DNA from: a bacterium
Lineage (GTDB): Bacteria > Hydrothermota > UBA3073 > JACQXS01 > JAQTXJ01
Length of the DNA stretch: 64,000 bases
Reading direction: 5' to 3'
Assembly: GCA_041649255.1 (NCBI GenBank)
Contig: JBAZNK010000004.1
Coordinates: forward strand, 28,647-92,646
Positions 41,753 through 59,159 of the stretch are shown here, piece by piece. Position 1 is the first letter of the stretch. Every line of letters begins with the position of its first letter. The notes beneath the pieces were generated by a model, which did not search any database, was not told the DNA's origin, and saw only the letters and a list, made by a program, of their open reading frames with translations. The translations under genes were made by a program, and so were the position numbers.

Positions 41753-41938
41753 TTATTCCTAATGCCTTTTTTAAATCAGCAAGTTCCGTGTCATTTATTA
41801 AAATATTCTGAACTCTCTTATATCATAAACATTTAAAGCTTTATTTAAAATACAAAAATATTTTCAATGTGGAAAATATTTCCTATCTAATAGGCAAAGA
41901 ACTAACTATTTTTTAATCACAAGAATGGATTATTAAAA

Positions 41939-42208
41939 ATGCTTGACTTTTTAAATATTAAGATTAATTGTTTTAACAGAATGGCGATTATCAAGAGAGA
42001 TAAGATTATAATTGAAGGTGAAGAAAATATAGGACTATCTCCTTCTCAACAGTCTATTCCTGTAGATACCCCGAATAATACAGAGTTAAAGGAGCCCGGG
42101 ATAAGTATAAACAAAGCAAATGGCATAGTTAACAGTATAGACATATTATGTACTTGTGGGCGTAAGATTCATATAGATTGTGAATACGAGGAAAAACCAA
42201 AAGCATAA
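41939..42208 (+). CDS. Small hypothetical protein with C-terminal Cys/His cluster, divergent from the modification island
   Basis: 89 aa ORF; ...ILCTCGRKIHIDCEYEE; no family assignment possible by eye. Confidence 0.3.
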   Translation: MLDFLNIKINCFNRMAIIKRDKIIIEGEENIGLSPSQQSIPVDTPNNTELKEPGISINKANGIVNSIDILCTCGRKIHIDCEYEEKPKA

Positions 42209-42263: not shown

Positions 42264-43520
42264 ATGAATAATAATTATAAAGTTCTTGTTTATGATTCCT
42301 CTTACGAAGTATGCAACACGCTAAAGAATATTCTAAAAGATTTTAATTTCGAAATAGTAGAGTGTACAAATGTAAAAGATTTTTTTAAGTTTCTTGAAAG
42401 TATATTTTTTAATATCGCCTTTTTTGACACAGAAAACAAAGATAAAATCGAGATAGATATTTTTCAGAAATTTAAGATGGCTATGAATCCTGATATAAAT
42501 ATTATTTTAACATCTACAGTTCCCAAAGTTGAAATTGCAATTCGCGGCATTAAGTTCGGAATTTTAGATTATTTAACAAAACCTCTTAATAAGAAAGAAG
42601 TGTTGGAAAGCGTAAATAAAGTAGTGAACAAAGAACAGCCTTTTGAGAGAACCGGGTTGGGTTTATTAATAGGAGTTTCTCCAAAAATGCAACAACTTTA
42701 TTCTGAAATCTTAAATGTCGCTCCAACAAACTCCACAGTATGCATTCAAGGAGAAAACGGGACCGGCAAAGAATTGATAGCCCAAACCATTCATAATCTT
42801 TCCCTTCGTAAAGACGCGAACTTTATACCTGTAAATTGCAGTGCCATTCCTGAAAGCCTGCTCGAGACAGAATTATTTGGTCACGTAAAAGGCGCATATT
42901 CCGGAGCATCTCGCGATAATCCTGGCATTTTCAGGGCAGCCGAAAAAGGAACCATATTTCTTGATGAAATAGCAGAAATACCACACAGCATTCAGATAAA
43001 ACTCCTAAGGGTTCTTGAAGAAAAAGAAGTCAGATCTATTGGAAGCGCCCAGAATTATAAAATTGATTGTCGCATTATTACAGCTACAAACAAAGATCTT
43101 GAAAGAGCCGTTTTACAAGGAAAAATAAGAGAAGATTTTTTCCATAGACTGTTTGTCGTTTCTATAATAGTCCCTCCGCTTAGAGAAAGAAGAGAAGACA
43201 TTCCCCTTCTAATTGAACACTTCTTAATTTTAACCAAGGGACAAAATAAAAAACAGATTTCGGACGAAGTTCTTGAAGCTTTATGCTCTTATGATTGGCC
43301 CGGAAACGTCAGAGAATTAGAAAACGTGATAGAAAGCGCTTGCGTTACAAGCAGCAGTAATAGTTTAATCAAACTAACCGATATTCCCTTAAAAATAAGA
43401 GGAAGCAAAGGATTCATGCCAAATCGAAAATCTGTTTTATGGGATGACACACAAAAAAGCCTCATTCAAAGGACACTTGCCCAAACAGGCACAACAAACT
43501 CAAAACTGCAAAACTACTAG
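42264..43520 (+). CDS. Sigma-54-dependent response regulator (REC + AAA+ sigma-54 activator; NtrC/FlgR/FlrC-like); the C-terminal Fis-type HTH is in another frame (43490-43606)
   Basis: REC residues (D10, D55, T/S ~82, K ~104); Walker A GENGTGKEL; GAFTGA-type motif (GHVKGAYSGA); ESELFGH-like; the ORF stops just before the HTH NKLKTAKLLGIDRKTLYRKLKRYKI, which is readable in the frame offset by 2. Confidence 0.8.
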   Translation: MNNNYKVLVYDSSYEVCNTLKNILKDFNFEIVECTNVKDFFKFLESIFFNIAFFDTENKDKIEIDIFQKFKMAMNPDINIILTSTVPKVEIAIRGIKFGILDYLTKPLNKKEVLESVNKVVNKEQPFERTGLGLLIGVSPKMQQLYSEILNVAPTNSTVCIQGENGTGKELIAQTIHNLSLRKDANFIPVNCSAIPESLLETELFGHVKGAYSGASRDNPGIFRAAEKGTIFLDEIAEIPHSIQIKLLRVLEEKEVRSIGSAQNYKIDCRIITATNKDLERAVLQGKIREDFFHRLFVVSIIVPPLRERREDIPLLIEHFLILTKGQNKKQISDEVLEALCSYDWPGNVRELENVIESACVTSSSNSLIKLTDIPLKIRGSKGFMPNRKSVLWDDTQKSLIQRTLAQTGTTNSKLQNY

Positions 43521-43792
43521 GCATAGATCGCAAAACATTATACAGAAAACTCAAAAGATATAAAATAGTATCTCCATCACCCCAGACACAAGACACAACA
43601 CAATAAACCAGCACAAAAACAAAACAACCCAATCAAAATAAACTACACATTAAACACACTCAAAATACCCCAACACAAACAAAATCAACCACAATAGTGT
43701 AGCATAAAACTACACCCCAAAACCCCTAACCAACAACACAAAACAACACAGCGTCAATTCGCTACACCACACTGTCGCTCAATGCCTCAGTG

Positions 43793-44005
43793 TGGCAAAT
43801 TGACATATAGGAACAAAATGCCACATTGTAACATAAGGCAAAAAGCCACACCTCGGGATTATTTATCATCACAGTAAAATAACTCAGGGGTATATTGCTA
43901 CACTAGACTGTGGCTAAATAGAACATTGGGGCAAATTGACATATGAGAACAAAAGCCACACCGCAAAGTAAGGCAAAAAGCCACACCTCGAGACTGTTTA
44001 TTATC
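43793..44005. repeat. Two ~75-bp direct repeats (period ~138 bp) with recurring GCCACA/TGTGGC motifs inside a CA-only intergenic region; candidate enhancer (UAS) elements
   Basis: GGCAAATTGACATAT[A/G]GGAACAAAA..GCCACA...TAAGGCAAAAAGCCACACCTCG[G/A]GA.T.TTTAT at 43795-43870 and 43933-44008; long-range inverted repeat GGGGCAAATTGACA (43935) / TGTCAATTTGCCCC (44052). Confidence 0.6.
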
Positions 44006-44150
44006 CTATTAATACAACTTAGGGGTAAATCGCCACATATAGTTGTGTCAATTTGCCCCTGTGGTTATTTAGGACATACTGATTTGTATGATGATGTAAC
44101 TATTTGTTGGGTGTGGGTTTTAGGGTATTAGTGTGAATAATTTTGTATAT

Positions 44151-44165
44151 TGGCACATTTGTTGC
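44151..44165 (+). promoter_or_regulatory. Sigma-54 promoter (TGGCAC-N5-TTGC) upstream of the second activator gene
   Basis: TGGCACatttgTTGCTATTATAATAT; exact -24/-12 consensus; lies inside the track ORF start (44143), so the real start is ATG 44182. Confidence 0.55.
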
Positions 44166-44181
44166 TATTATAATATCTACT

Positions 44182-45231
44182 ATGGCAAAATTAACGGAAT
44201 TATTTTCTGAATTTAACGTTGCTGCAGAACGATTAGAAGGGGCTTACAAGGTTTTACAGGAGAAGGTTGAGCGTGCAAACCTATCCTACGGTTTTGGACC
44301 TCTTGTTGGAAGAACTGAAGGGATGAAGGAAATATACGAGATAATTCGTGCAGTTGCAAAGAGTAGAGCTTCGGTTTTGGTATATGGGGAGTCCGGGACC
44401 GGAAAAGAACTTGTATCAAGAGCAATACACTACGAGAGTAATTGCAAAGATAAACCTTTTATTTCCATAAATTGTGCGGCTATTTCCGAGGGGTTGTTAG
44501 AAAGCGAGCTTTTTGGTCATGAGAAAGGAGCTTTTACCGGAGCATTAGAAAAAAGAAAAGGGAAATTTGAACTTGCCAATGGAGGGACATTACTTCTTGA
44601 TGAAATTTCAGAGATGGGACTTATGCTCCAGGCGAAATTACTTCGTGTATTACAGGAATTTAGGTTTTTTAGAGTAGGCGGTTCCGAAGAAATAAAAGTA
44701 GATGTGAGGATAATTGCCACAACAAACCTTAATCCAAAAGAAGCTATTGAAAAACAAAAACTCAGAGAAGACCTTTTTTACAGGTTAAACGTAGTGAGCG
44801 TTAATATTCCACCATTGAGAGAAAGAAAAGAGGATATTCCTGTTCTTGCGGCTTATTTTTTAAGGAAATATTCCACTTTTTACAATAAACAGGTAAATTC
44901 CATCTCAACAGATGCATTAAAAATTCTTTTAAATTATAACTGGCCTGGAAATGTAAGAGAACTTGAAAATGTAATAGAGAGGGCAGTGATTCTTAATTCT
45001 TCTCCCTCGGTTCTCACTTCACATCTCAATCTTTCCAATAACTCAAATGATGTGCAATTAAACGGACTTATTGGATTATCTTTAGATGAAATAGAAAAGA
45101 AAGTTATTATTGAAACATTAAAAAAGAATAATGGGAACCGGACAAATACTGCTAAAATGTTAAAAGTAAGTATCCGGACAATAAGAGAAAAAATCAGGCA
45201 ATATAAAAAAGATGGGGAAATAATTGACTAA
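44182..45231 (+). CDS. Sigma-54-dependent transcriptional activator lacking any receiver/sensor domain (PspF-like: ~40-aa N-terminal helix + AAA+ + Fis HTH)
   Basis: GESGTGKELVSRAIH Walker A; GAFTGA (EKGAFTGAL); ESELFGH; intact C-terminal HTH (NRTNTAKMLKVSIRTIREKIRQY). Confidence 0.8.
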   Translation: MAKLTELFSEFNVAAERLEGAYKVLQEKVERANLSYGFGPLVGRTEGMKEIYEIIRAVAKSRASVLVYGESGTGKELVSRAIHYESNCKDKPFISINCAAISEGLLESELFGHEKGAFTGALEKRKGKFELANGGTLLLDEISEMGLMLQAKLLRVLQEFRFFRVGGSEEIKVDVRIIATTNLNPKEAIEKQKLREDLFYRLNVVSVNIPPLRERKEDIPVLAAYFLRKYSTFYNKQVNSISTDALKILLNYNWPGNVRELENVIERAVILNSSPSVLTSHLNLSNNSNDVQLNGLIGLSLDEIEKKVIIETLKKNNGNRTNTAKMLKVSIRTIREKIRQYKKDGEIID

Positions 45232-45315
45232 TAGGTGGAGTTTTTTGCCTATTGTAAAAAAAAGTAGTTTTATGAATTTATTATTTTATATACCTATTAT
45301 AGGTAGTGTTAATTT

Positions 45316-45330
45316 TGGCACGAAATTTGC
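45316..45330 (+). promoter_or_regulatory. Sigma-54 promoter (TGGCAC-N5-TTGC) of the flgB operon
   Basis: TGGCACgaaatTTGCTATTATAAATAT, 19 nt upstream of the flgB ATG; same downstream TATTATAA(A)TAT box as the 44151 promoter. Confidence 0.6.
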
Positions 45331-45348: not shown

Positions 45349-45759
45349 ATGAATAGTATTTTTAACGATATGGGTTTTGGCGCTACAAAAAAAGGGTTGG
45401 ATGTTAGCGCTTTGAGAAACAAGGTAATTGCCCAGAATATTTCAAATGTCTCAACGCCGGGATATTCTTCGTCAAAAGTAAAGTTTGAAGAGCTTCTTGA
45501 CGAAAAACTCGGGTTCAAATTATCCGGGACACGCACAAATCAAAGTCATCTACCCGTTGGCAGGGCAAATAACGAAATTAACAACGTAAATCCCTTAGTT
45601 GAAACATCAACTGATCCGATTCCGGCTGGGAAAGTCAACAACATAGAGATAGACAAAGAAATAGTTTCGCTTGCAAAAAATTCTTTAGATTGGGATACGT
45701 ATGTTAATTTGATTTCTTTCAAATATAGGCTTTTAACGCTAAGTATAAGAAGACAATAA
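45349..45759 (+). CDS. flgB: Flagellar basal-body rod protein FlgB
   Basis: 136 aa; N-terminal rod motif (LDVSALRNKVIAQNISNVSTPGY). Confidence 0.85.
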   Translation: MNSIFNDMGFGATKKGLDVSALRNKVIAQNISNVSTPGYSSSKVKFEELLDEKLGFKLSGTRTNQSHLPVGRANNEINNVNPLVETSTDPIPAGKVNNIEIDKEIVSLAKNSLDWDTYVNLISFKYRLLTLSIRRQ

Positions 45760-45783
45760 CAAAAATAAAACGGAGGTTATTAT

Positions 45784-46287
45784 ATGGGATGGTTTCCGGG
45801 AATTGACATAAGCGCGTCCGGGCTTTATGCGCAGCGTGTCAAACTAAATCAAGTAGCAAACAATATTGCAAATATAAATACGACCCGTAGTTTTTCGGGT
45901 GGACCTTATCGCAGACACGAGGTTTTATTGAAATCGGAAGATAATTTTTCGCAGCATCTTAGTGGACTGGAAGCTACACAAACGCCTCTTTCTTTGACAC
46001 ATCCTCGTCATATGCCATCGCTTGACGCTATGGGATCAGAATCCACACGGCAAAGACAAGGCGTAGCAGTAGATGAAGTAACTGAAGATACCGTAACTCC
46101 CTTTAAGACGGTATATAATCCTTCTCATCCGGATGCAGATAAGGATGGTTACGTAAAATTACCGAATGTAGACATTACTAAAGAACTTACGGATATGGTA
46201 ATAGCCAAAAGGGCTTACGAAGCAAATGTTGCATCAATTAATGCGAGTAAATCAATGGCAAGAACAGCACTTGACATAGGGAGATAA
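45784..46287 (+). CDS. flgC: Flagellar basal-body rod protein FlgC
   Basis: 167 aa; SASGLYAQRVKLNQVANNIANINTTRS N-terminus and conserved C-terminus (IAKRAYEANVASINASKSMARTALDI). Confidence 0.85.
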   Translation: MGWFPGIDISASGLYAQRVKLNQVANNIANINTTRSFSGGPYRRHEVLLKSEDNFSQHLSGLEATQTPLSLTHPRHMPSLDAMGSESTRQRQGVAVDEVTEDTVTPFKTVYNPSHPDADKDGYVKLPNVDITKELTDMVIAKRAYEANVASINASKSMARTALDIGR

Positions 46288-46394
46288 AAAGAAATGCAAA
46301 TTTTAGATTCTAGACTTTGCCTGCCTGCCGGTAGGCAGGGATTTGGGATAAGTACGATCTCGGCATCCACCTTAGGTGGAGATAGGAGGGTTAA

Positions 46395-46681
46395 TGGATA
46401 AAATTAGTAGAATTCAATTCGAAGCTCTTGCAAAATTAGAAGCGGCAAAATCAGACAAATCCGTTGATTTTAAATCCGTTTTAGAGAATTTTGTTAAAGA
46501 GGTTAATGACTTACAAAAGGAAGCAGACAATTCCATAGAGAAATTTACTTCAGGAAAAGAGGTAGACATTCATAAGGTAATGATAGCGACTCAAGAGGCA
46601 CAAATAAGCTTCCAACTTATGCTTGAACTTCGTAATAGATTGCAGACGGCTTACGAAGAAGTAATGCGCACGCAGATATAA
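46395..46681 (+). CDS. fliE: Flagellar hook-basal body protein FliE
   Basis: 95 aa from the ATG preceded by AGGAGGG (the track ORF starts upstream at 46376); C-terminus NRLQTAYEEVMRTQI typical of FliE. Confidence 0.75.
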
Positions 46682-46747
46682 TATTTAAAGTATACTAATA
46701 TGAACAATATAATATAATGAGGGAGATATTTTATTTAAAATAATCCT

Positions 46748-48226
46748 ATGAAATTCTGGAGCAAGCTTGGAATATTACAGAAAATTCTTTTTATTGGGAT
46801 AATCATAACAGCGATAGCGTCTTTTATGATTGTTCCAACTATGAAGAGCAAAAATGAAAAATTTGTCACTCTTTATTCTGAACTCAGTTTAAAAGAAGCA
46901 GGCGAGATAACAAAAAACCTTAAAGAGCTTAGCATTCCTTACAAAATAACGGATGGTGGCACAAAAATTCTTGTTCCTGAACTTCAAGTTTATGAGTCCA
47001 GACTAAATTTAGCATCTAAAGGAATTCCCAAGGGTGGAACGGTCGGCTATGAAATATTTGACAAAAACAATCTTGGGACAACGGCATTTGTAGAAGAAAT
47101 AAATTATAAACGTGCACTTGAGGGAGAACTTGTGCGAACTATTCAGAGCATAGAAGAAGTCAGCAGTGTAAGGGTTCACCTTGTTACACCAAAGGAACGA
47201 TTATTTAAAGAAGACCAAAAATCACCGAGTGCATCAGTAGTATTAAGATTAAAAAGTCCTCTTGCCGAGTCACAAATAAAGGGCATTGCTCATCTTATTG
47301 CCTCATCCGTAGAAGGTTTAGAGGCACAAAATGTAACTATACTTGATTATTCCGGAGAACTTTTACACGGTGGGGTTGGCGGGGAAGCGGACAACATTGC
47401 CATTTTATCAGGCAATCAATTAGAAACAAAACGCGATGTAGAGCGTTATCTTGCGCAAAAAGCTCAAGCCTTACTTGAAAAAGCAGTAGGTTATAGCAAT
47501 GTAATCGTAAAAGTAAATGCAGACATTAATTTTACCAATATAGTCGAGACTAACGAAAAATATGACCCGGAAGGACAGGTAGTAAGAAGTGAGGAAAAAC
47601 GTTCCGGCGGACAAAGTGGTGAAAAAAGTTCTGTAACTAATTATGAGATAACAAAAAGTGTTCAGCAGGTAATCAATCGTGCCGGCACCATAAACAGGCT
47701 TTCTGTTTCGGCTTTAATAAATGGGACATACGATCTTATAGAAGAAAACGGGAAGAAATCTTATAAATATACTCCTCGTAGTGAAACCGATTTAATGAAG
47801 TTTCAATCGCTTGTAAAAAATGCAGTAGGATATACATTAACAAGGGGAGATTCTATAGAAGTCACTTCCGTTCCTTTCGGAGCGCCTGTTATTGACACAC
47901 AGAAACCGGAAAAAGAAGGGATACCTATTTTAGTTATAATACAACCACTTATAACACCTATAGTGACCGGAATAGTAATTATTATAGTTCTTATGTTTTT
48001 AATACGGTTATTAGGTTCTATGCCTTCCGCTGCCGGTCGCCCTGTCAATCGTTCTGCCGCTCCCGGACAAACTGCTGCAAACGCTCAGACATCTCCAGAT
48101 AGAGCAACAGAAAGTACAAAGGGAGAAGAAAAAACAGATTTCAATAAACTAAAAGAAGACTTTTCAAAGACCGTAGCTGAGAACCCAAATATGCTTGCGG
48201 GAGTAATAAAAAGATTACTGAAATAA
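46748..48226 (+). CDS. fliF: Flagellar M-ring protein FliF
   Basis: 492 aa; N-terminal TM, conserved periplasmic region (ELQVYESRLNLASKGIP), second TM and cytoplasmic tail. Confidence 0.85.
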   Translation: MKFWSKLGILQKILFIGIIITAIASFMIVPTMKSKNEKFVTLYSELSLKEAGEITKNLKELSIPYKITDGGTKILVPELQVYESRLNLASKGIPKGGTVGYEIFDKNNLGTTAFVEEINYKRALEGELVRTIQSIEEVSSVRVHLVTPKERLFKEDQKSPSASVVLRLKSPLAESQIKGIAHLIASSVEGLEAQNVTILDYSGELLHGGVGGEADNIAILSGNQLETKRDVERYLAQKAQALLEKAVGYSNVIVKVNADINFTNIVETNEKYDPEGQVVRSEEKRSGGQSGEKSSVTNYEITKSVQQVINRAGTINRLSVSALINGTYDLIEENGKKSYKYTPRSETDLMKFQSLVKNAVGYTLTRGDSIEVTSVPFGAPVIDTQKPEKEGIPILVIIQPLITPIVTGIVIIIVLMFLIRLLGSMPSAAGRPVNRSAAPGQTAANAQTSPDRATESTKGEEKTDFNKLKEDFSKTVAENPNMLAGVIKRLLK

Positions 48227-48281
48227 AAACAAGATAACGAGTTCTAATGGCTATCGCCAAAGAACTTGTAATAAATAATAC

Positions 48282-49265
48282 ATGGCAGAAGAACTATCAG
48301 GACCACAAAAAGCAGCAGTTATTATCGCATGGCTTGATGATACTCTTGCAGTTGAAGTTTTAAAACAATTATCTCCTGAAGAAATAAAATCAGTAGCAAA
48401 AGAAATAGCCCAACTTGGAAATATTCCACCAAGGGCAGTAAAAAATGTATTATCTGAATTTAATGAATTAATGACAGAACAACCTATTGTAGGCAACCAG
48501 ACAAGGGCAACTGCACTTCTAAATCAGGTAATGGGAAATTTGGAATATTCAGAAATAGTAGGGGATTATGGCGGAGAAAGCGACAAAAAGGCATTGGAAA
48601 TTCTCCAGAATGCAGATCCTTTTGCTCTTCTTGATGCAATAAAAAATGACCAGCCACAAACTATAGCAATAACGTTAAGGACCATTCCCCCGGCAAAAGC
48701 ATCAATGATTTTAAGAGACTTGCCTCCCGAAACAATGGAGGAAGTCATAAAAAAAATGACCAAACTTGATAACGTTTCTTCGGAAACAGTTAATATAATA
48801 GCACAAAGTTTAAGGATGAAACTACGATTAGCGACATCCAAAGAAGAGATTCGTCGTTCAAGCGGAATTGGTATTGCATCTACAATTGTATCTTATATTG
48901 GTGGAGCAGATGCTCAAAATATATTAAAGTCTATAGGGGAAAAAGATTCGGATACGGCAAACAGGATGAAAGATTTAATATTCACATTTGATGATATAGC
49001 AGATATGGAAGACAAAGCGCTCCAGCAGATTATTCGTGAGATAGACAGGCATACTCTTGTTGTAGCATTAAAAGGTGCCAATGAGAAGATAAAAAATAAG
49101 ATTTTATCCAACGTATCAGAAAGGGCAAAAGAAGAGTTGATGGAAGAATTTGAAACGCTTGGTGCTTTGAGATTAGCGGAAATAGAAGAATCTCAAAGAA
49201 AAGTTGTAGAAATAATACGAAGGCTTGATGAAGAAGGCAAGGTTACGTTACAAAAGAAACAATAA
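48282..49265 (+). CDS. fliG: Flagellar motor switch protein FliG
   Basis: 327 aa; FliG N-terminal, middle and C-terminal domains (LSGPQKAAVII...; MEDKALQQIIREID). Confidence 0.85.
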   Translation: MAEELSGPQKAAVIIAWLDDTLAVEVLKQLSPEEIKSVAKEIAQLGNIPPRAVKNVLSEFNELMTEQPIVGNQTRATALLNQVMGNLEYSEIVGDYGGESDKKALEILQNADPFALLDAIKNDQPQTIAITLRTIPPAKASMILRDLPPETMEEVIKKMTKLDNVSSETVNIIAQSLRMKLRLATSKEEIRRSSGIGIASTIVSYIGGADAQNILKSIGEKDSDTANRMKDLIFTFDDIADMEDKALQQIIREIDRHTLVVALKGANEKIKNKILSNVSERAKEELMEEFETLGALRLAEIEESQRKVVEIIRRLDEEGKVTLQKKQ

Positions 49266-49271
49266 TAATTT

Positions 49272-49847
49272 ATGGAATATACAATAAAGACGAGCATGCC
49301 ATTAAAAGATATATCTTTTCGGCAGGCTACGCAAAATACATGCGAACATCTAGATTTCTGGAATAAAGTTTACGGGGAAGGGTTTAAAGATGGTAGCCTA
49401 AAAGGCACAGAAAAAGGGCTAACAATGGCAAAGAACGAGTTGCAAAATACTAAAGAGAAGTTAGAATTTTTAGTTCATTCTTTTTTAGAGGAAAAAGAGA
49501 AACTTTTAAAATCATCGGAAACAACCATATTTCAATTAGTAAAAGAGATAGCCAAAAAAGTTATAGAGATTGAGATAAACGAAAACCCTAAAGTAATTGT
49601 TGATACTGTAGGCGAAGCAATAAAGCGGATAAGAGAAGAAGAAAGGGTTATAATTAAAGTTAATCCCGTAGATTTTGACATTATAAAATCAAAAGAAAGC
49701 GAATGGGTAGCTTCTCTTCCTTATGTTTCAAAGTTTCAAATAACAGCCGACGAAAATATATCCCGGGGAGGTTGTTTAATAGAAACCAGTGTTGGGAAAA
49801 TAGATGCCACTATTGAGTCCAAGTTTAAGAAATTAGAAGAGCTCTAA
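49272..49847 (+). CDS. fliH: Flagellar assembly protein FliH
   Basis: 191 aa; position between fliG and fliI; FliH/YscL-like C-terminal region. Confidence 0.7.
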   Translation: MEYTIKTSMPLKDISFRQATQNTCEHLDFWNKVYGEGFKDGSLKGTEKGLTMAKNELQNTKEKLEFLVHSFLEEKEKLLKSSETTIFQLVKEIAKKVIEIEINENPKVIVDTVGEAIKRIREEERVIIKVNPVDFDIIKSKESEWVASLPYVSKFQITADENISRGGCLIETSVGKIDATIESKFKKLEEL

Positions 49848-49857
49848 TAAACAAACT

Positions 49858-51177
49858 ATGACAGAACTTATATTGGATAAATATTTAACAAAAATAGAGA
49901 ATACGGACTTTATATCTCATAGCGGTAAAGTTACGGGTGTAACAGGACTTATAATTGAAGCACGTGGACTTCATGCAGCAATTGGGGAAGTTTGCAATCT
50001 AATAAATAATAACAATCCCCACGAAAGCATAAAAACTGAAGTAGTTGGTTTCAAGGGCGACAATACACTTCTTATGCCACTTGGTTCAATGGATGGTATT
50101 TCTCCCGACACTGAAGTTATTACAACAGGCAAGCCATTGGAAATACCTGTCAGCAATGCTCTTCTTGGAAGGGTATTAGACGGGCTTGGGAATCCAATAG
50201 ACGACAAGGGACCTCTTTTAAGTTCCGAAAACAGGTGTGTATATAATGTAGCGCCTCATCCTTTAAAACGTTCAAGAGTAAAAGAGGTTTTACCTACCGG
50301 GATAAAGGCAATAGATGGTTTTTTAACTTGCGGAAAAGGCCAAAGGATAGGAATATTTTCCGGAAGCGGCATAGGGAAGAGTACATTAATGGGTATGATT
50401 GCGAGGTATTGCAAAGCCGATATAAACGTAATTGGACTGACAGGGGAAAGGGGAAGGGAAGTTAAAGACTTCATCGAAAAAGATTTAAAAGAAGGTATTA
50501 GCAAATCGGTCGTAGTGGTTTCCACTTCCGAACAACCTGCTCTTATAAGGTTAAAAGGAGCATTTACGGCTACTACGATAGCAGAATATTTCAGAGATAA
50601 GGGTTATAACGTATTATTATTATTGGATTCCATAACTCGTATAGCAATAGCACAAAGAGAGGTAGGGTTATCCATTGGGGAACCGCCAACAACAAAAGGA
50701 TTTACTCCTTCGGTTTTTGCGCTTTTACCAAAACTTCTTGAGCGTTCGGGAATGTCTGATACCGGTAGTATTACAGGTTTTTACACCGTTCTTGTCGAAC
50801 AGGGAGATATGGATGAGCCAATATCGGATGCCGTAAGAGCAATTCTTGATGGACACATCGTTCTTTCAAGAAAACTTGCCCATGCAAATCATTATCCTGC
50901 GATAGACATTCTTTCGAGTATTTCAAGACTAATGATAGACATTGTCCCCAAAGAACACAATAATGCAGCAAGGTTAACGAGAGACATTCTTGCATTACAT
51001 AGAGAAACAGAAGACCTTATAAATATTGGGGCATATGTCAGACATTCCAACCCCAAAATAGACCACGCAATAGATATGATTGATAAAATTAACGATTTTG
51101 CAGAACAAGAAATCGATTTAAAAGCAGAGTATAAGCAAACCATTCAACAATTAATTGAGCTTAGCAAGTCCGCCTGA
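49858..51177 (+). CDS. fliI: Flagellum-specific ATPase FliI
   Basis: 439 aa; Walker A GSGIGKST, Walker B LLLLDSITR, T3SS ATPase signature. Confidence 0.9.
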   Translation: MTELILDKYLTKIENTDFISHSGKVTGVTGLIIEARGLHAAIGEVCNLINNNNPHESIKTEVVGFKGDNTLLMPLGSMDGISPDTEVITTGKPLEIPVSNALLGRVLDGLGNPIDDKGPLLSSENRCVYNVAPHPLKRSRVKEVLPTGIKAIDGFLTCGKGQRIGIFSGSGIGKSTLMGMIARYCKADINVIGLTGERGREVKDFIEKDLKEGISKSVVVVSTSEQPALIRLKGAFTATTIAEYFRDKGYNVLLLLDSITRIAIAQREVGLSIGEPPTTKGFTPSVFALLPKLLERSGMSDTGSITGFYTVLVEQGDMDEPISDAVRAILDGHIVLSRKLAHANHYPAIDILSSISRLMIDIVPKEHNNAARLTRDILALHRETEDLINIGAYVRHSNPKIDHAIDMIDKINDFAEQEIDLKAEYKQTIQQLIELSKSA

Positions 51178-51194
51178 GGCGGAGTTGATAAAAA

Positions 51195-51641
51195 ATGAAA
51201 AGATTTGAATTTAGGCTTGATAAAGTTATGAATTATAAAAAAAATATAGAAGAGATGAAGAAACAAGAACTTGCACAAGCTATGAGATTGCTTCTTGAAG
51301 CTCAAATAAAAGCTTCCCAGTTGAAAAAATATAAATCCTGCCAGCTTAAAGAGATGACTGAGATCCAGGAAGATGATATATATACAAGATTATTGTATGA
51401 TAAGTATATATTAGCTTTAAATTTTCACATAAAAATGGCTGAAAAATTAATAGCAGAAAGAATCCTTTTAAGCGAACAAAAAAGACTTGAAGTTGTTGAG
51501 GCATCTAAAGCCCGACGTATCTTTGAAAAATTAAAGGAGAAAAAAATAGAAGAATTTAATTACGAGCGAAATAAATGGGAACAAGGCGTTGAAGATGAAT
51601 GTGCTAAATACGTTCATAATAATCAGAGTACGATAAGATAA
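51195..51641 (+). CDS. fliJ: Flagellar export protein FliJ
   Basis: 148 aa coiled-coil protein directly after fliI. Confidence 0.65.
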   Translation: MKRFEFRLDKVMNYKKNIEEMKKQELAQAMRLLLEAQIKASQLKKYKSCQLKEMTEIQEDDIYTRLLYDKYILALNFHIKMAEKLIAERILLSEQKRLEVVEASKARRIFEKLKEKKIEEFNYERNKWEQGVEDECAKYVHNNQSTIR

Positions 51642-51673
51642 TCCGCCAAGGCGGGACTAAAAAAAATATAATT

Positions 51674-52465
51674 ATGGCTGACGAAGAACAAAAACAAGAG
51701 TTAACTAACTCTGAATCCACTGCTCCGGATAACAAGGCAGGGAAAAAAACAAAGCCTAAAAAAGGTGGGTTTTCGATTAAATTCCCTAAAAAAGCTTCGG
51801 GCGGTAAAAAAAATAAATCCAGAGACGAAAGAGATGATAGAGACAAGGAAAAGAAAACAGATGGGAAAGATGCTCCAAAAGAAGGGACCGGGAAAAAGCC
51901 CCCCAAAAAAATGTTATTATTAATAATTATAGGTGCCGCTGTTATTATTATTGCAGCAGCAGGATTTTTTGTCTTAAAACCGAAGCTCGCATCAAAAAAA
52001 AACATAGCAGAACAAGCAGATTCTTCAAAAGTTGCTTTGGCAGATACATTCAAAACCGATTCTTTACTTACAGATACATCTTCTTACAGTCTTTCTAATG
52101 CCGACACCAACAAATTAAATGCCGACTCTATTCTTGCTCAAGATGAAACAACTCAAAATTCTAATTCTTCACAACTTGATGTCGCTATAAAACAAGCGGA
52201 AGACAAGACAATACTCGAAAAACAATTATTAGAAACAAAACGTGTAAATGACAGCATCGTCAAAGAATCCGAACGTAAACTTACCAAGACTCTGGAATCT
52301 ATGGAACCTGAGGGCATGAGCGCCATTATGGATAGTCTTGATGATAATACCGTTATTGATTTATTATCAAAAATGAAACCTAAGAATGTTTCCGAGATAT
52401 TAAGCGTTATGAATCCGGGCAGGGCGGCTAAACTTATAAGAGACATTAACTCTAGAAACAAATGA
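51674..52465 (+). CDS. YlxF/MotE-family flagellar protein (Lys-rich N-terminus, one TM, C-terminal MgtE_N-like domain)
   Basis: 263 aa; C-terminus SAIMDSLDDNTVIDLLSKMKPKNVSEILSVMNPGRAAKLI resembles the MgtE N domain; same position as ylxF in the B. subtilis fla/che operon. Confidence 0.55.
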   Translation: MADEEQKQELTNSESTAPDNKAGKKTKPKKGGFSIKFPKKASGGKKNKSRDERDDRDKEKKTDGKDAPKEGTGKKPPKKMLLLIIIGAAVIIIAAAGFFVLKPKLASKKNIAEQADSSKVALADTFKTDSLLTDTSSYSLSNADTNKLNADSILAQDETTQNSNSSQLDVAIKQAEDKTILEKQLLETKRVNDSIVKESERKLTKTLESMEPEGMSAIMDSLDDNTVIDLLSKMKPKNVSEILSVMNPGRAAKLIRDINSRNK

Positions 52466-54957
52466 ATAATAATACTAATATAATTTCTAAAAACTGTCTA
52501 CCTGTTTCAAAAGGGAAGACAAAAACTGCTTTACTTAAAAATACCCAATTTAACTCTCTTAATAATCTAAAAGGGGAAAAATATCAGGACAATAGAGCAA
52601 GTTTTAATGATGAACTATTTAAGGTCTTAACTGTTCCGGGTATGTCTTCCCTTAAAGAATCTTCGATGAAAATATCTACACCCAACAATACTACTTCTAA
52701 CCGGTTGAATTCAAATTCTTCTTCCACCTCATTAAACAATACGGCAACCCGTCTTACATCCTCAACTGCCAAGGAGACAGAAACTACGAGCACCGCCAAG
52801 AATATTTCTACCAAGTTAAATACAAATTCAAATTCTTCTTCCACCTCATTAAACAATACAACAACCCGTCTTACATCCTCAACTGCCAAGGAGACAGGAA
52901 CTACGAGCACCGCCAAGAATATTTCTACCAAGTTAAATACAAATTCAAATTCTTTTTCCACCTCATTAAACAATACAGCAACCCGTCTTACGTCCTCAAC
53001 TGTCAAGGAGACAGGAACTACGAGCACCGCCAAGAAAGAGACTACGACATTGGGGATTGATAAATCGCCAAGCATATCTATTCCGGAAGCCTTGAAGACA
53101 AATAAACCGGATTCCAGTTCTCTCCCTACCTACGTCAGGCAGGCAGGGAATAATAACCCTATCGCTACACCTATTAATCTTTCCGAAACAAACAAACAAA
53201 CAACTTCAGTATTTTTTAATAAAAATATAAAATTGACTGTCACAGCTGAACATCCTATATCATATGATAAAAACACCGCGAATCAAATTCAGTCACAGTC
53301 TAATTCTGACTTAGCAAGCAAAGTATCTGATAAGACAAACAAACAAACTGAACCAACAAGTAATAACACAATCCCGGGGCATCAAATTTCCGCTTCAAAA
53401 ATAATTACAACAAGTACTTCTATACCTACCGGATTAAAAGCAGGTTCAAATTCTTCCCCATCTTCATATTTAAATGACGCCTCTACCGCAAAAGCACCGG
53501 TTACTTCTAAAACACTTTTTCTTAAGGAATCTACGACAGTACATCAGAAAACAGACAAAAACATAACAACTAAACTTTTATCCTTAAATGACAAAGAAAC
53601 AGGGACTACGCCCACTACAAAGGTAGGGGCTACGACATTAGGAATTGATAAATCGCCGAGCATATCCATTTCGGAAGTCCTGAAGACAAATAAATCTGAT
53701 GCTATCAATACCCGCCAAGACAGGATAAGGAATTTATCATCTACGATAAATTCTTCCCGCGTTAAGTTTGATAATTTATCAAGTTCCACGCCTATTAATA
53801 TTTCCGACTTAAACAAGCAAATATCTACAGTATTTTCCAATAAAAATACTGCAAGTCAAATTCAGCCAGAATCTCGTTCTGACTTAGCAAATAAGGTATC
53901 TGACAAACCAAAAGAGAAAACAAAACCAATAAACAGTAAAGCAATTTCGGGTTCTGTTACAAGCGAACTTTCCGTTCAACCGCGTTCAGAGGAAATACCT
54001 GTCATTCGCCTCAAGCAAACCAACAGTACGGTATCTTCTTCGTCCATTTTTCCACCAAAGGCGGATGAGTCCATTCTTCCAACAATACTCCAAACAAAAG
54101 TCGAACAAGTAGCTCAAGGGAGGCTCAATATAAGACACTCTGCTCCGATAGAGAGAACTGATACCGGAACGGATAAAAAAATTAATACTGACAATAACTT
54201 ATCTAAAAATATATTTATTAAAGAGCAGGTTATTCCATTATCTACGCCAAGACAAGATGTTTCATATTCAAAAACCTATTCAAATATGTTCAATACGAAT
54301 GACAGGAATACGGATAACCTTAGCGTTCAAAAGCAATCACAGAAAACCGTTTCCAATGTATCTTTTAATACTGCCGGGTCAGAACCATTATCACCTAACA
54401 ACGACGTAATTAATATTCTCCAGTCAAAGGAAAACGCATCTAAGACTGACATTACGCCTAAAAACACTTCTTTTACAGGGTCTTCTACCACTCAAACAAT
54501 CTTTCAATCTAGTTTTCCCTTCATTTCAAATCATATTAAAACCTCTTTAACGACAACTAAAACAGGAGATTTGATAACAACTACTTTCAATCTCAAACCG
54601 GAGCATTTAGGCAAATTAAAAATAAGTTTAATTTCGCATAATAATTTTACTCAAGACAAAACTTCTATATCAGAGCTCAAACTTGTCGTTGATAACATTG
54701 CGACCAAACAATTATTAGAATCTAATATTTCACAACTTAAATCTGCTCTTCTTTCAGAAGGGGTTATGATTCAAGAATTTAATATTTCTCTTAATCAAGA
54801 TGCGTCTGATAATGCACATCAATCTTTGCCAGGGTACAATCATTCAAAATTATCTACACTATCTTCCATCAAAGACGAGTCTAATTTTGATAGGAATGTA
54901 ATTCCATCGGGTATTAACTTAGCTTATGAAAAAGGAAAAATTGATTTATTTATTTAA
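52462..54957 (+). CDS. fliK: Flagellar hook-length control protein FliK (unusually long, 831 aa, repeat-rich N-terminal ruler region)
   Basis: C-terminal Flg_hook domain (TTFNLKPEHLGKLKISLI...LKLVVDNIATKQLLESNISQLKSALLSEGVMIQEFNIS); Ser/Thr/Asn-rich N-terminal region with tandem repeats. Confidence 0.7.
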   Translation: MNNNTNIISKNCLPVSKGKTKTALLKNTQFNSLNNLKGEKYQDNRASFNDELFKVLTVPGMSSLKESSMKISTPNNTTSNRLNSNSSSTSLNNTATRLTSSTAKETETTSTAKNISTKLNTNSNSSSTSLNNTTTRLTSSTAKETGTTSTAKNISTKLNTNSNSFSTSLNNTATRLTSSTVKETGTTSTAKKETTTLGIDKSPSISIPEALKTNKPDSSSLPTYVRQAGNNNPIATPINLSETNKQTTSVFFNKNIKLTVTAEHPISYDKNTANQIQSQSNSDLASKVSDKTNKQTEPTSNNTIPGHQISASKIITTSTSIPTGLKAGSNSSPSSYLNDASTAKAPVTSKTLFLKESTTVHQKTDKNITTKLLSLNDKETGTTPTTKVGATTLGIDKSPSISISEVLKTNKSDAINTRQDRIRNLSSTINSSRVKFDNLSSSTPINISDLNKQISTVFSNKNTASQIQPESRSDLANKVSDKPKEKTKPINSKAISGSVTSELSVQPRSEEIPVIRLKQTNSTVSSSSIFPPKADESILPTILQTKVEQVAQGRLNIRHSAPIERTDTGTDKKINTDNNLSKNIFIKEQVIPLSTPRQDVSYSKTYSNMFNTNDRNTDNLSVQKQSQKTVSNVSFNTAGSEPLSPNNDVINILQSKENASKTDITPKNTSFTGSSTTQTIFQSSFPFISNHIKTSLTTTKTGDLITTTFNLKPEHLGKLKISLISHNNFTQDKTSISELKLVVDNIATKQLLESNISQLKSALLSEGVMIQEFNISLNQDASDNAHQSLPGYNHSKLSTLSSIKDESNFDRNVIPSGINLAYEKGKIDLFI
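52711..53040 (+). repeat. 2.8 tandem copies of a 117-bp (39-codon) in-frame repeat inside fliK
   Basis: The marker TCAAATTCTT recurs at 52711, 52828 and 52945; unit encodes NSNSSSTSLNNTATRLTSSTAKETETTSTAKNISTKLNT; a diverged larger-scale copy lies at ~53590-53900. Confidence 0.8.
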
Positions 54958-55009
54958 GTCCGGGTTCCGGGCTCCCGAACATTTTCGGGGAAATGAAGGA
55001 GGTGATTAA

Positions 55010-55669
55010 ATGATAACGAATATACAGAGCCTTAATTACACAACTACTAGCGCTACAGCATCTACTGCTTCTACTGACATTACAGGTAAAGATGAATTTT
55101 TAAAACTTCTTACAACTCAACTCAAATACCAGGATCCTACTGCTCCTATGGATAACAAAGATTTTCTTGCACAGCTTGCACAGTTTTCGAGTTTAGAGCA
55201 ACTTCTTAACGTCAACGGAAATCTTCAGGCAAATTTTCTTGCTCTCCAATCTCTAAACAATTCTTCCGCGACTGATTTTATCGGAAAAACCGTTAAGGCC
55301 ACAGGTAATTCTGTTTCTCTTGTTGAAAACGCATCGGTTCCTATTAGTTATTCTCTTGCCGGGGCTGCTGAAGCAACAGTAAGTATTTACGATTCCAACG
55401 GAAATTTAGTCCGCACTTTAGATTCTGAATGGCAAAGTTCGGGTGACAATCAAATGTTATGGGATGGAAAAGATTCTTCGGGCAATGCTTTGGCGCCGGG
55501 GAAATATACTTTTTCGGTTTCAGCAAAGGATACTGATGATAATTCCGTAACAGCTACAGGATACCTCAGCGGTAAAATAACGGGAGTAAAGTTCGTCAAC
55601 GGTAATCCTGTACTTATGATGGGTGACACAGAAATATCTTTTAGTGATATTTACGAGATAAATGGTTAA
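55010..55669 (+). CDS. flgD: Flagellar hook capping (scaffolding) protein FlgD
   Basis: 219 aa; DEFLKLLTTQLKYQDPTAPMDNKDFLAQLAQFSSLEQL signature; AGGAGG RBS. Confidence 0.85.
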   Translation: MITNIQSLNYTTTSATASTASTDITGKDEFLKLLTTQLKYQDPTAPMDNKDFLAQLAQFSSLEQLLNVNGNLQANFLALQSLNNSSATDFIGKTVKATGNSVSLVENASVPISYSLAGAAEATVSIYDSNGNLVRTLDSEWQSSGDNQMLWDGKDSSGNALAPGKYTFSVSAKDTDDNSVTATGYLSGKITGVKFVNGNPVLMMGDTEISFSDIYEING

Positions 55670-55684
55670 TAAGGAGGTGATGAA

Positions 55685-56098
55685 ATGGTAGATAAATTAA
55701 CGGTAACTAATTCTGTTAATACAAAGAGACCAATCACACCCGTATCAGGTGGAATATCTGATAGTAAATCAGGGCAGATACAAGGGGCAGGTTCAACCAG
55801 TTTTGCCGAACTGTTAAGAGAAAAAGGGATTCAACTTTCAAATCATGCCAACACGAGAATACAGTCCAGAAATATTCCAACCAGCACAGAGAATGTTTCG
55901 AGACTGCAGTCTGCAATAGACAAAGCCAGTGCCAAGGGTGCAAAAGAATGCCTTGTTCTTATGGACAACACTGCATATTTGGTCGCTCTAAAACATTTGC
56001 CTGACGGGAAAGCAAGTCAGACAGTAGTTACTGTTATAAGTAAAGATGAGCTTCAACAGCGCATTTTTACTTCTATAGATTCGGTTGTAATTGCTTGA
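55685..56098 (+). CDS. Flagellar operon protein (TIGR02530-like ORF conserved between flgD and flgE)
   Basis: 137 aa; the call is positional and by size, in the known flgD-X-flgE arrangement of Firmicutes and spirochaetes. Confidence 0.45.
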   Translation: MVDKLTVTNSVNTKRPITPVSGGISDSKSGQIQGAGSTSFAELLREKGIQLSNHANTRIQSRNIPTSTENVSRLQSAIDKASAKGAKECLVLMDNTAYLVALKHLPDGKASQTVVTVISKDELQQRIFTSIDSVVIA

Positions 56099-56217
56099 GG
56101 CCGGACCTTGCCATAGTGGCAAGGAAGCCTCTTTATGTCGCTGAATGACTGATGCGGCATACTTTCCGCCCGAAAGGCGGAAAGTCTCGCCAAGGCGGGA
56201 CAAGGAGGAGGGGGAAA

Positions 56218-58263
56218 ATGATAGGATCATTATATACAGGAGCGAGTGGGCTTAGAGCTCATCTCCTGAGACTTGACGTAGTTAGTAACAATCTTGCAAA
56301 TGTTAACACAATTGGTTTTAAGGCAGGCAGAACGACTTTTGAAGAAGCTTTATCACGTTTCATATCTTCCGCTCGCAGGGCTGATGACGATATGGGAGGT
56401 ATAAACCCGGCTCAAATCGGGACAGGTGTTAATGTTTCTTCTATTGATAATATCTTTACACAGGGGGGATTATCCTCTACGGGTGTAACTACTGACCTTG
56501 CTATACAGGGAAATGGATTTTTTACGGTAAAGGATAATTCCGGCGCAAATTATTATACAAGAGCCGGTATGTTCAGACTTGATTCTTTAGGACATTTAGT
56601 AACCCCGGATGGTCTCAGACTTCAGGGTAAAATGGCAGACAGCGAAGGGACTATCGCATCCGGAACAAGCATAGAAGACCTGATACTTCCACTCGGTGTA
56701 AAAGTTCCTGCAAAAGCAACGACAGAAGCGAAATTTACTTGCAACCTTAATATGGCAGAGAATCCATTAGAGACAATTCTAAATTCACAAAGAATGTTGG
56801 GAGATGCTATATCCACAGACGCATTAAGTGGACTCACTGACGGTTCAGGTTCAAGAATGACTTTAGACGCCAATGATAACGTAACATTCACAGTCGGGGC
56901 ATCATCGACCATTTTATCTTATGACATAAGCAGTGACGGAGCAGCTTCAGACAACAAGTTTCATACATTAGCCGGGCTTGCGGCAGAACTACAAAGCTTT
57001 GTGACAGGGTTAGCGGGACACGCTGCAGATACCGTAACAGTGGTTGCTGGGACAGGAGCCGGGGCACAAACCCAGATAAGATGGGCCAATAGCGCCGGAG
57101 CAACAGCTACGTTTGATTCTAATAATGCAGTATTAAAGGATATGTTTTCTTCATATAGCGGAACAGTATTAGCCGGGAATATAGATTCGGATAATTTCTT
57201 ACATAACGCAACCGGTGCGGACAGACTTGAGGACTTATATTCGTCATCAGGGACAAATTTAGGGTTAACAGCCGGTGACACTTTGATATTTTCAGGAACA
57301 AATGGAACTAGCGCAGTAAATACGACACATGCGATGATTGCAGCAGATACCTTAGATACTTTATGCGGTTGGTTAGAGACAGATTTTTCAATAGCAACCG
57401 GGGAAGCAAAAATGGATTCTGACGGCAAACTTGTAATTGAAGGAGATAAAGGGACAGCCAATGCATTAACAGCATCCATCACAGAAGCAGGTAATACGAT
57501 ATTTAACGGTTCAATGGGACTCGCGGAATCGCAAGCAGCGACAGACATAACACATTCAACATCATTCTCGGTTTATGATTCACTTGGCGTAACTCACACG
57601 GTAACAGTAAAGTTCCAGAAAGATGAAATAACATCAAATTTATGGCATTGGACTACAACTCTTGATAGAGGAACAATATTAAACGGAGGAAGCGGGGATG
57701 TAAGTTTCAATAGCGATGGCAGTTTAGCATCTTTTGGATATACAGGAGGCGTAAGTGCGTTTTCGTTCGATCCTGAAGATGGTGCTACAAATCCGGTAAA
57801 TATTGATTTTAATGCAGGTACAATAAATGCATTCGACGGGATAACTCAGTTATCAGGGGCAACTACAACAATTATGTCTCACCAGAACGGTTATGCAATG
57901 GGAAGATTGTCAACCATAGCAGTAAATGGTAACGGAGAAATTACAGGTAGTTTCACAAATGGTATAACGAGAACATTAGCTGAGGTATCGCTTGCAACAT
58001 TCACTAATCCTGCCGGATTAAAGAAAGCGGGTAATTCGTTATGGCAGGAGGATGTAAACTCAGGGACAGCAGTTCTTGGAAAAGCAGGAACAACTTTACC
58101 TGATACAAGCATATCCGCAGGATATCTTGAGCAATCCAATGTAGACATGGCAAATGAATTTATAGAAATGATTATCGCACAGAGGGGATTCCAAGCAAAT
58201 TCAAAAACCATAGCATTGGGAGACCAAATGCTGGCAGAATTAGCGGCATTAAAACGAATATAG
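56218..58263 (+). CDS. flgE: Flagellar hook protein FlgE (large, 682 aa)
   Basis: Start MIGSLYTGASGLRAH... after AGGAGGAGGGGG RBS (the track ORF start 56152 reads through an upstream hairpin region); conserved C-terminus (GYLEQSNVDMANEFIEMIIAQRGFQANSKTI). Confidence 0.85.
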   Translation: MIGSLYTGASGLRAHLLRLDVVSNNLANVNTIGFKAGRTTFEEALSRFISSARRADDDMGGINPAQIGTGVNVSSIDNIFTQGGLSSTGVTTDLAIQGNGFFTVKDNSGANYYTRAGMFRLDSLGHLVTPDGLRLQGKMADSEGTIASGTSIEDLILPLGVKVPAKATTEAKFTCNLNMAENPLETILNSQRMLGDAISTDALSGLTDGSGSRMTLDANDNVTFTVGASSTILSYDISSDGAASDNKFHTLAGLAAELQSFVTGLAGHAADTVTVVAGTGAGAQTQIRWANSAGATATFDSNNAVLKDMFSSYSGTVLAGNIDSDNFLHNATGADRLEDLYSSSGTNLGLTAGDTLIFSGTNGTSAVNTTHAMIAADTLDTLCGWLETDFSIATGEAKMDSDGKLVIEGDKGTANALTASITEAGNTIFNGSMGLAESQAATDITHSTSFSVYDSLGVTHTVTVKFQKDEITSNLWHWTTTLDRGTILNGGSGDVSFNSDGSLASFGYTGGVSAFSFDPEDGATNPVNIDFNAGTINAFDGITQLSGATTTIMSHQNGYAMGRLSTIAVNGNGEITGSFTNGITRTLAEVSLATFTNPAGLKKAGNSLWQEDVNSGTAVLGKAGTTLPDTSISAGYLEQSNVDMANEFIEMIIAQRGFQANSKTIALGDQMLAELAALKRI

Positions 58264-58353
58264 GAATAAGTAGAGAGCAGTAAGTTAAGGTAGAGAGTTA
58301 ATTATTCCGCTTCAGGCGGATAAGAGTTAAGTCCGTCTGAAGCGGATAAGAAT

Positions 58354-59139: not shown

Positions 59140-59159
59140 AGAAGGCAGGCACGTAAAAA

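Follow-up and report, generated by a model that had tools for sequence, protein, structure and literature searches.

How can a flagellar sigma-54 activator be controlled when it carries no receiver domain, and what does such a protein control in turn? The question is raised by a gene at positions 44182 to 45231 of a stretch of 64,000 nucleotides from a Hydrothermota bacterium (contig JBAZNK010000004.1 of assembly GCA_041649255.1; the whole stretch is called the window below). The gene, referred to here as the minimal activator, adjoins a second activator gene that does encode a receiver (REC) domain, the REC-activator, and lies directly before the flagellar gene flgB. We find that the minimal activator is a real gene without a receiver domain, and we favor, with about an even chance of its being correct, a cascade in which the REC-activator would switch on a constitutively active minimal activator and the latter would switch on flgB. 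The parts of the gene that matter for this argument are as follows.

44182 to 45231, forward strand: receiver-less sigma-54 activator of 349 amino acids, with an N-terminal helix, AAA+ domain, lid and HTH_8 (Pfam)
44185 to 44274, forward strand: N-terminal stub, residues 2–31, one long helix, a putative relic of receiver beta5/alpha5 plus coiled-coil linker (alignment and AlphaFold2 model)
44386 to 44409, forward strand: Walker A motif GESGTGKE (columns G69–E76 invariant in two alignments)
44527 to 44544, forward strand: GAFTGA loop, the sigma-54 contact motif (direct reading; columns invariant)
45082 to 45204, forward strand: Fis-type helix-turn-helix (HTH) domain HTH_8 (PF02954), residues 301–341 (Pfam, 4e-13)

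A preliminary description, made from the letters of the window, had proposed a protein consisting of AAA+ and HTH only, with some 40 residues ahead of the AAA+ core, and Pfam agrees on each point: Sigma54_activat (PF00158) spans residues 41–207 (2e-69), AAA_lid_14 follows at residues 213–285, and neither a REC, GAF or PAS domain nor any match to PF00072 was found in the protein. Its Walker B sequence LLLDEISE lies in invariant alignment columns, the arginine-finger columns are also intact, and its closest PDB matches are NifA, ZraR and NtrC1 (1e-83 to 1e-75, 280 bits). By its AAA+ motifs and HTH, the protein is predicted to be a bacterial enhancer-binding protein (bEBP; clade 6 AAA+).

A gene of this shape could arise as an artifact or pseudogene, that is, as a 5′-truncated or frameshifted response-regulator gene with its receiver part lying upstream, and a superficially similar case illustrates the risk. 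In the KSB1 locus L005, a 362-amino-acid homolog was considered as a second receiver-less protein and set aside, given that an 87-amino-acid receiver open reading frame (ORF) ends 16 nt upstream of it and the gene looks split. For the minimal activator, the probability of such an explanation is negligible, and we treat it as refuted. Its frame is closed by a TGA at 44134, 48 nt 5′ of the ATG, and stops are abundant in all frames across the 660-bp intergenic region that precedes it. No receiver similarity was found in any frame of these 660 bp, and tblastn with five receiver domains, taken from the closest REC-bearing relatives, detected no remnant beyond chance in 43400–44300 (best E = 0.078, 18.5 bits). 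The orthologs P0002, P0003, and P0004 (353–364 amino acids, 62–68% identity) start no more than a few residues away from that position, the N-termini seen in orthologs of other genomes being MAK, MGKEING, and MSKEING, and in one closely related locus (L087, below) a 1-nt indel directly before the ATG throws an upstream TTG extension out of frame. The stop, the chance-level tblastn result, the shared starts and the indel together rule out a frameshifted or upstream-extended receiver, including the in-frame sensory extension that the preliminary description had named as the finding that would overturn its view. A conserved promoter directly upstream and the pattern of codon changes, both described below, also speak against an artifact.

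Three loci were available for close comparison: L001 (GCA_028688815.1), L087 (GCA_028716385.1), and a 64%-identical WOR-3 locus, L003. The minimal protein is 100% identical in L001, whose DNA is ~94% identical, and it is 99% identical in L087. Nei-Gojobori counts for the gene come to 0 nonsynonymous and 69 synonymous changes against L001 (ratio of nonsynonymous to synonymous rates, dN/dS, 0) and 4 nonsynonymous and 82 synonymous changes against L087 (dN/dS 0.01); values elsewhere are all higher, at 0.05–0.14 for flgB, 0.07–0.09 for flgC, and 0.02–0.05 for the REC-activator. The 40-residue N-terminal stub shares this constraint, being identical in the three genomes (window, L001, and L087). The layout is also shared, as the window, L001, L087, and L003 all have a small cysteine (Cys) protein, the REC-activator, a repeat-rich intergenic region, the minimal activator and then flgBC-fliEFGHIJ. 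These comparisons indicate a functional, strongly conserved gene that is under strong purifying selection. A genome-collection scan for further orthologs returned only the same metagenome-assembled genome and generic NtrC-family matches of at most 54% identity. A representative search yielded 85,617 relatives at 1e-30, among which clustering at 50% does not separate the ortholog group; receiver-less proteins of 312–361 amino acids do exist among the close relatives.

Where did a protein of this kind come from? Aligned with REC-bearing relatives, the stub places LFSEFN against KPFSxxE of receiver beta5/alpha5 and its remainder against an ENxxLRxxL-type linker. In the AlphaFold2 model, residues 2–31 form a single helix (predicted local distance difference test score, pLDDT, 55–70) ahead of a disordered connector. 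Among REC-bearing relatives, the nearest is P0005 (59% identity), encoded in the order PAS-histidine kinase, regulator, flgB, an arrangement like that of FlgSR and FlrBC. Since the stub matches a receiver end plus linker and P0005 sits between a kinase and flgB, the minimal activator is best described as a receiver-deleted flagellar response regulator of the FlgR/FlrC/NtrC1 type, with loss of the kinase as well; no kinase gene adjoins it in the window, L001, L003 or L087, and the related locus L006 has one. It is not a local duplicate of the neighboring REC-activator, because the two are only 41% identical. Family models place it likewise near flagellar regulators and outside their cut-offs: its best NCBIfam match is FlbD (375.9 bits, below the cut-off of 750), and FlgR scores 288.9 bits against a cut-off of 750. 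The term PspF-like, used in the preliminary description, thus holds for the architecture, in that there is no N-terminal regulatory domain, and fails for the family: the PspF equivalogs lie below their cut-offs (TIGR02974, 281.7 vs. 443.55 bits; PRK11608, 236.7 vs. 529), among bEBP matches in the PDB, PspF chains rank with the weakest (203 bits vs. 280 for NifA, ZraR, and NtrC1), and the stub would be a receiver relic.

The next question is what drives expression of the gene. The following promoters and nearby palindromes were found.

44151 to 44165, forward strand: sigma-54-type promoter TGGCACATTTGTTGC (TGGCAC-N5-TTGC), 17 nt before the ATG of the minimal activator (motif scan)
45316 to 45330, forward strand: second sigma-54-type promoter TGGCACGAAATTTGC (TGGCAC-N5-TTGC), 18 nt before the flgB ATG
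41779 to 41793, reverse strand: sigma-54-like variant TGACACGGAACTTGC, heading a divergent glycosyltransferase, methyltransferase and radical-SAM operon
22810 to 22824, reverse strand: sigma-54-like variant TGACACGGAATTTGC, before a 53-amino-acid ORF and a TPR gene
45293 to 45303, no strand assigned: palindrome CCTATTATAGG, candidate site for a second regulator, 12 nt 5′ of the flgB −24 element
41882 to 41894, no strand assigned: palindrome CCTATCTAATAGG, second CCTAT-N-ATAGG copy, ~90 nt upstream of the reverse-strand promoter at 41793

Perfect TGGCAC-N5-TTGC occurs only twice in 64 kb, before the minimal activator and before flgB. When the −24 element is relaxed to TGRCAY, there are four matches, all intergenic and all directed into operons, against 0.35 expected from shuffles. 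Around 44151, the window, L001, and L087 share a 33-nt block without any change, amid flanking intergenic DNA that has diverged, and the claim that the gene has a sigma-54-type promoter of its own is well supported by this block and the perfect motif within it. The flgB promoter is conserved in L087 and reads TGGCAT in L001. At the three equivalent places in L003, the motif is TGACAC- or TGACAT-N5-TTGC (5590, reverse; 7774 and 9187, forward), with TGACAC-N5-TTGC as the promoter of the minimal activator and TGACAT-N5-TTGC as the equivalent of 41779–41793. TGACAC or TGACAT also replaces TGGCAC at the two variant sites of the window, 22810–22824 and 41779–41793. Because L003 has TGACAC or TGACAT where the related genomes are canonical, and L001 has TGGCAT at flgB, the lineage appears to tolerate an A for the second G of the −24 GG, which would amount to relaxed −24 recognition. 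The palindrome CCTAT-N(0–7)-ATAGG has two sites in the window vs. 0.6 expected from shuffles, both upstream of sigma-54-type promoters. The copy at flgB is conserved in L001 and L087; L087 has neither the 41793 promoter nor the left half of the palindrome that accompanies it.

Between the two activator genes lies the repeat-rich intergenic region, which has two parts.

43540 to 43745, forward strand: CA-rich, nearly G-free tract of 205 nt (A 54%, C 30%, G 4%, T 12%), directly after the REC-activator gene
43745 to 44065, no strand assigned: enhancer-like array of 320 bp, with two 135-nt direct repeats and inverted repeats

The CA-rich tract is also present in L001 and L087. The array holds about eight imperfect sites of the TGGC-N5-GCCA type, and GGCAAATTGACA occurs in it in three copies and nowhere else in the window. 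In the sequence available from the four genomes (window, L001, L087, and L003), each taken separately, TGGC-N5-GCCA sites with at most one mismatch are roughly 40–90 times denser in the intergenic region than in the remaining sequence, and the intergenic TGGC/GCCA sites occur at a gap of 5 only, with none at gaps of 4 or 6. The 13-mer TGGCAAATCGCCA is exact in both L001 and L003, and the proximal site at 44046–44059 is strictly conserved, inside a block of 21 nt, CTGTGTCAATTTGCCCCTGTG, in which three genomes do not differ. In these respects the array looks like an enhancer (upstream activating sequence) for a dimeric HTH protein. A structured RNA was also considered, since the array region folds better than shuffles (z = −5.3 on the forward strand and −3.2 on the reverse); the changes in L001 and L087 to its long-range arm (43928–43941 with 44046–44059) are uncompensated, and protein-binding palindromes are therefore the simpler interpretation. 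Rfam gave no match in the window or in the intergenic region, CA-rich tract included.

Which protein would bind this array? The preliminary description had the minimal activator firing its own promoter, as a positive feedback loop at the top of the flagellar hierarchy. According to this explanation, the minimal activator would bind the array and form a bistable switch, primed by read-through from the REC-activator gene. In favor of this, the protein does carry an HTH, a large array accompanies the sigma-54 promoter of its gene, the forward strand between the two activator genes has no predicted terminator, so that priming by read-through could occur, and in this strain the REC-activator is encoded without its HTH (see below), leaving the minimal protein as the sole adjacent DNA-binding activator. 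However, neither flgB nor the other sigma-54-type promoters of the window, which the minimal protein would also have to serve, have the array motif nearby, and with the array limited to the promoter of the minimal gene, a cascade fits at least as well as autoregulation. Furthermore, the array core is kept across lineages in which the recognition helix of the minimal protein has changed (4 of 10 positions differ between the window lineage and L003) and that of the REC-activator has not: its helix reads IDRKTLYRKL in the window lineage and L003 alike, and the array core does not differ between them either. A feedback loop without input would also call for an additional brake, and the analysis found none. 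We regard self-activation as unlikely, and as for the feedback loop and its place at the hierarchy's top, the layout lends them no support: the REC-activator unit would sit above, and the array is absent at flgB.

That unit consists of two genes.

42264 to 43606, forward strand: REC and AAA+ (plus HTH) activator; the frame ends at 43520 here, and the +1 frame encodes the HTH to 43606
41981 to 42208, forward strand: small Cys protein, 75 amino acids from a conserved ATG, always just upstream of the REC-activator

The REC-activator was correctly described beforehand as a receiver-bearing neighbor, with REC and AAA+ found by Pfam at 42264–43520. Relative to L001, L087, and L003, it has a 1-nt deletion near 43497 (GGCAACAA to GGCACAA), which removes the recognition helix of its HTH and leaves 418 amino acids vs. 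the 445–447 of orthologs with HTH_8; past the deletion, the +1 frame reads KTAKLLGIDRKTLYRKLKRYKI perfectly. A Logan contig from SRR8542065 that is 100% identical to the window has the same deletion, which may be a real mutation of recent date or may stem from an error in the reads or the assembly. Ahead of the small-ORF/REC-activator unit there is a conserved TTGACT (TTGACA in L003), ~35 nt 5′ of the ATG, and a sigma-54 motif is absent, which suggests that the unit belongs to a first tier, above the minimal activator.

The cascade that we favor would then run in four steps. A sigma-70-type promoter would express the small Cys protein and the REC-activator. The REC-activator, phosphorylated by an unlinked kinase, would bind the TGGC-N5-GCCA array 90–400 bp upstream and fire the promoter at 44151. 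The minimal activator would in turn switch on flgBC-fliEFGHIJ through their sigma-54 promoter and, probably, a glycosylation island on the other side of the regulators through its sigma-54-like promoters, so that this tier would comprise basal-body, hook and glycosylation genes. Flagellin would come last, from a sigma-28-type promoter. The minimal protein would act as a constitutively active ring, with no phosphorylation step, because the linker of its REC-bearing relatives is long and helical, as is typical of negatively regulated activators such as NtrC1 and DctD; if it is constitutive, control would rest mainly on how much of the protein is made. In negatively regulated bEBPs with long coiled-coil linkers, receiver deletion yields constitutively active oligomers, while in the positively regulated FleR it yields an inactive protein (PMC10696123). 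The linker type of the minimal protein argues for the former case. We infer constitutive activity, the assignment of sites to proteins and the order of the tiers from evidence of this kind.

Several points weigh against this cascade. Relatives of the FleR type are inactivated by loss of the receiver, and constitutive activity is deduced here from the type of linker. The REC-activator is put forward as the protein that would bind the array from the conservation of its recognition helix and the absence of the array at other promoters, and the deletion, if real, would stop it from binding the array in this strain. The start of the minimal gene is unusual as well. With the −12 C at 44165, transcription is predicted to begin at ~44177, which gives a leader of ~5 nt without a Shine-Dalgarno sequence, and a perfect TATAAT at 44169–44174 overlaps this leader, so that the gene may have a sigma-70 or leaderless start. 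The flgB leader is likewise short (~7 nt) and without a Shine-Dalgarno sequence; flgC, flgD, and fliN carry GGAGG, and in L003 the equivalent promoters lie 135–210 nt from the start codons. rpoN was not seen among the window ORFs examined. Finally, no site common to all putative target promoters was found; CCTAT-N-ATAGG was tried in that role and set aside as a weak lead, with two sites vs. 0.6 expected and none in L003.

The presence of two activators side by side invites a different explanation, in which they would form mixed rings in the manner of FleQ/FleT or HrpR/HrpS, with the REC subunit giving signal control and the minimal subunit switching the complex from class II to class III promoters. 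The tandem genes are strictly syntenic in four genomes, and such partnerships have precedents (PMC11999139; PMC10084136). The sigma-54 loop of the REC-activator is a variant, GAYSGA instead of GAFTGA (GAYSGA or GAFSGA across orthologs), its HTH-less form in this strain could reach DNA through a partner, and the extreme constraint on the minimal protein would suit several interaction surfaces. We nevertheless consider hetero-oligomers quite improbable, as the two proteins share only 41% identity, both sets of AAA+ motifs are complete, and in relatives the two proteins have separate HTH domains that differ in the recognition helix.

A further explanation, also quite unlikely in our judgment, places control in trans: an anti-activator in the style of PspA, HrpV, FleN or FliX would dock on the N-terminal helix and restrain the ring up to the passing of an assembly checkpoint. 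Where bEBPs lack a regulatory domain, they are classed as trans-regulated by protein binding (PMC7175178), and the stub, identical in three genomes, is also well conserved among the orthologs of 62–68% overall identity, which implies that it is more than a decaying relic. Two candidate partners come into question, the small Cys protein and an FlhG-like ATPase with a gene elsewhere. The former is lineage-restricted and always encoded in the same cluster, with orthologs of 72–81 amino acids (L001, 7809–8036; L087, 6001–6219; L003, 5751–5996) that have the C-terminal motif GIVxSIDIxCTCGRxIHIxCEY; a search of 5.8 billion sequences yielded only two other protein clusters. It matches no Pfam or NCBIfam family and has no known fold, its AlphaFold2 model (a four-stranded sheet) is of low to moderate confidence with a mean pLDDT of 61, too low for a fold search, and its link to the activator is one of position only. 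The preliminary description also suggested a partner like pspA or fleN, and here the result is negative: no PspA-, FleN/FlhG- or FliX-like gene was found among the ORFs of the 64-kb window that were Pfam-scanned or had precomputed Pfam hits, which are most of the ORFs but not all.

Self-activation, mixed rings and an anti-activator are compatible with one another and are not mutually exclusive. A reading in which the minimal activator, by means of its invariant N-terminal helix and AAA+ surface, co-assembles with the REC-activator or docks the small Cys protein, and the two HTH specificities switch promoter classes, we likewise hold to be rather improbable; if true, it would represent an independent FleQ/FleT-like class switch in an uncultured WOR-3-related lineage, one that tolerates loss of the REC-activator HTH.

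The regulators of the cascade that we favor stand within a larger flagellar region, to which the operon downstream belongs.

45349 to 62908, forward strand: flagellar operon flgB flgC fliE fliF fliG fliH fliI fliJ, then fliK flgD flgE motA fliM fliN fliO fliP fliQ fliR (Pfam)

On the other side of the window lie fliD, fliS, the flagellin gene and a roughly 30-kb island of glycosyltransferase, methyltransferase and radical-SAM genes. The island (12000–41752, reverse strand) is situated between flagellin and the regulators, has a sigma-54-like promoter at its head, and encodes TPR-glycosyltransferases, methyltransferases and a 1657-amino-acid multi-radical-SAM/B12 protein; its probable role is the modification of flagellin. 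In L087 its place is taken by a NeuB/CMP-sugar pathway. The ORF between the 22824 promoter and the TPR gene (22607–22768, reverse strand) is unannotated and encodes a basic protein of 53 amino acids (MNGNKKREKKYGKK...) behind a GGAGG Shine-Dalgarno sequence. Upstream of the flagellin gene (10748–11620, reverse strand), the segment 11640–11680 contains a sigma-28-like CTAAAG-N15-AGCGATAA and a strong GGAGG, a motif that would fit a late, FliA-dependent class. A phosphotransferase system (PTS) EIIA-2 gene of the PtsN-like kind is found at 6261–6776 (reverse strand); PtsN-like genes often accompany rpoN.

How does the locus compare with systems already described? Its closest functional precedent is FleQ and FleT of Rhodobacter (Cereibacter) sphaeroides, where FleQ with sigma-54 activates the fleT-fliEFGHIJ operon and FleQ/FleT hetero-oligomers then activate class III genes (PMC7277832; PMC11999139). 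In both cases a truncated second activator, with a sigma-54 promoter and a paired master activator, is placed before early flagellar genes (fliEFGHIJ for FleT; flgBC-fliEFGHIJ here). However, FleT lacks regulatory and DNA-binding (R and D) domains (PMC7175178) and is inactive alone, whereas the minimal protein has a full HTH_8; moreover, its partner here has a receiver, and the minimal protein would derive from a FlgR-type regulator. bEBPs without a regulatory domain, such as PspF and HrpR/S, are a recognized trans-regulated group (PMC7175178). Escherichia coli PspF, of bEBP group 4, resembles the minimal activator in having AAA+ and HTH with no N-terminal sensory domain and in its expected constitutive activity (PMC7175178). 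In contrast to PspF, the minimal gene has a flagellar context (REC-activator and flgB) and a putative receiver/linker relic, with no pspA or psp operon beside it and no PspA domain among the window ORFs scanned. HrpR and HrpS of Pseudomonas syringae are likewise encoded by adjacent, paired bEBP genes; neither has an N-terminal domain, and HrpV controls both in trans (PMC10084136). Here only one of the two proteins is receiver-less, they are distant paralogs (41%) rather than products of a recent duplication, and the regulon is another one.

FlgR of Campylobacter and Helicobacter, FlrC of Vibrio, FleR of Pseudomonas and FlbD of Caulobacter are second-tier sigma-54 activators encoded next to rod and basal-body genes, just as the minimal gene is placed directly before flgB with its separate TGGCAC-N5-TTGC. 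The second flagellar activator of Vibrio and Pseudomonas is itself encoded by a sigma-54-dependent gene. Unlike these regulators, the minimal protein has no receiver, no phospho-acceptor Asp and no adjacent kinase, and the assembly-checkpoint input that FlgS, FlrB or FleS would provide is therefore missing here. The receiver-deletion constructs of Aquifex NtrC1 and of DctD share with it the long helical linker before AAA+, and there deletion gives constitutive oligomers (PMC10696123); those are laboratory truncations, whereas the truncation here is natural, fixed and under strong purifying selection.

Such a naturally fixed loss of the receiver in a flagellar response regulator suggests two possible substitutes for the phosphorylation checkpoint of Campylobacter, Vibrio and Pseudomonas: purely transcriptional control over an activator that is constitutive, or some unknown partner. 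The circuit is compact, with two activators, two conserved sigma-54 promoters, an unusually large conserved array and relatives that use TGACAC, all in an uncultured lineage. It does not overturn the current understanding of sigma-54 regulation: the minimal activator locus is a lineage-specific version of the known two-activator flagellar cascade and not a new kind of system.

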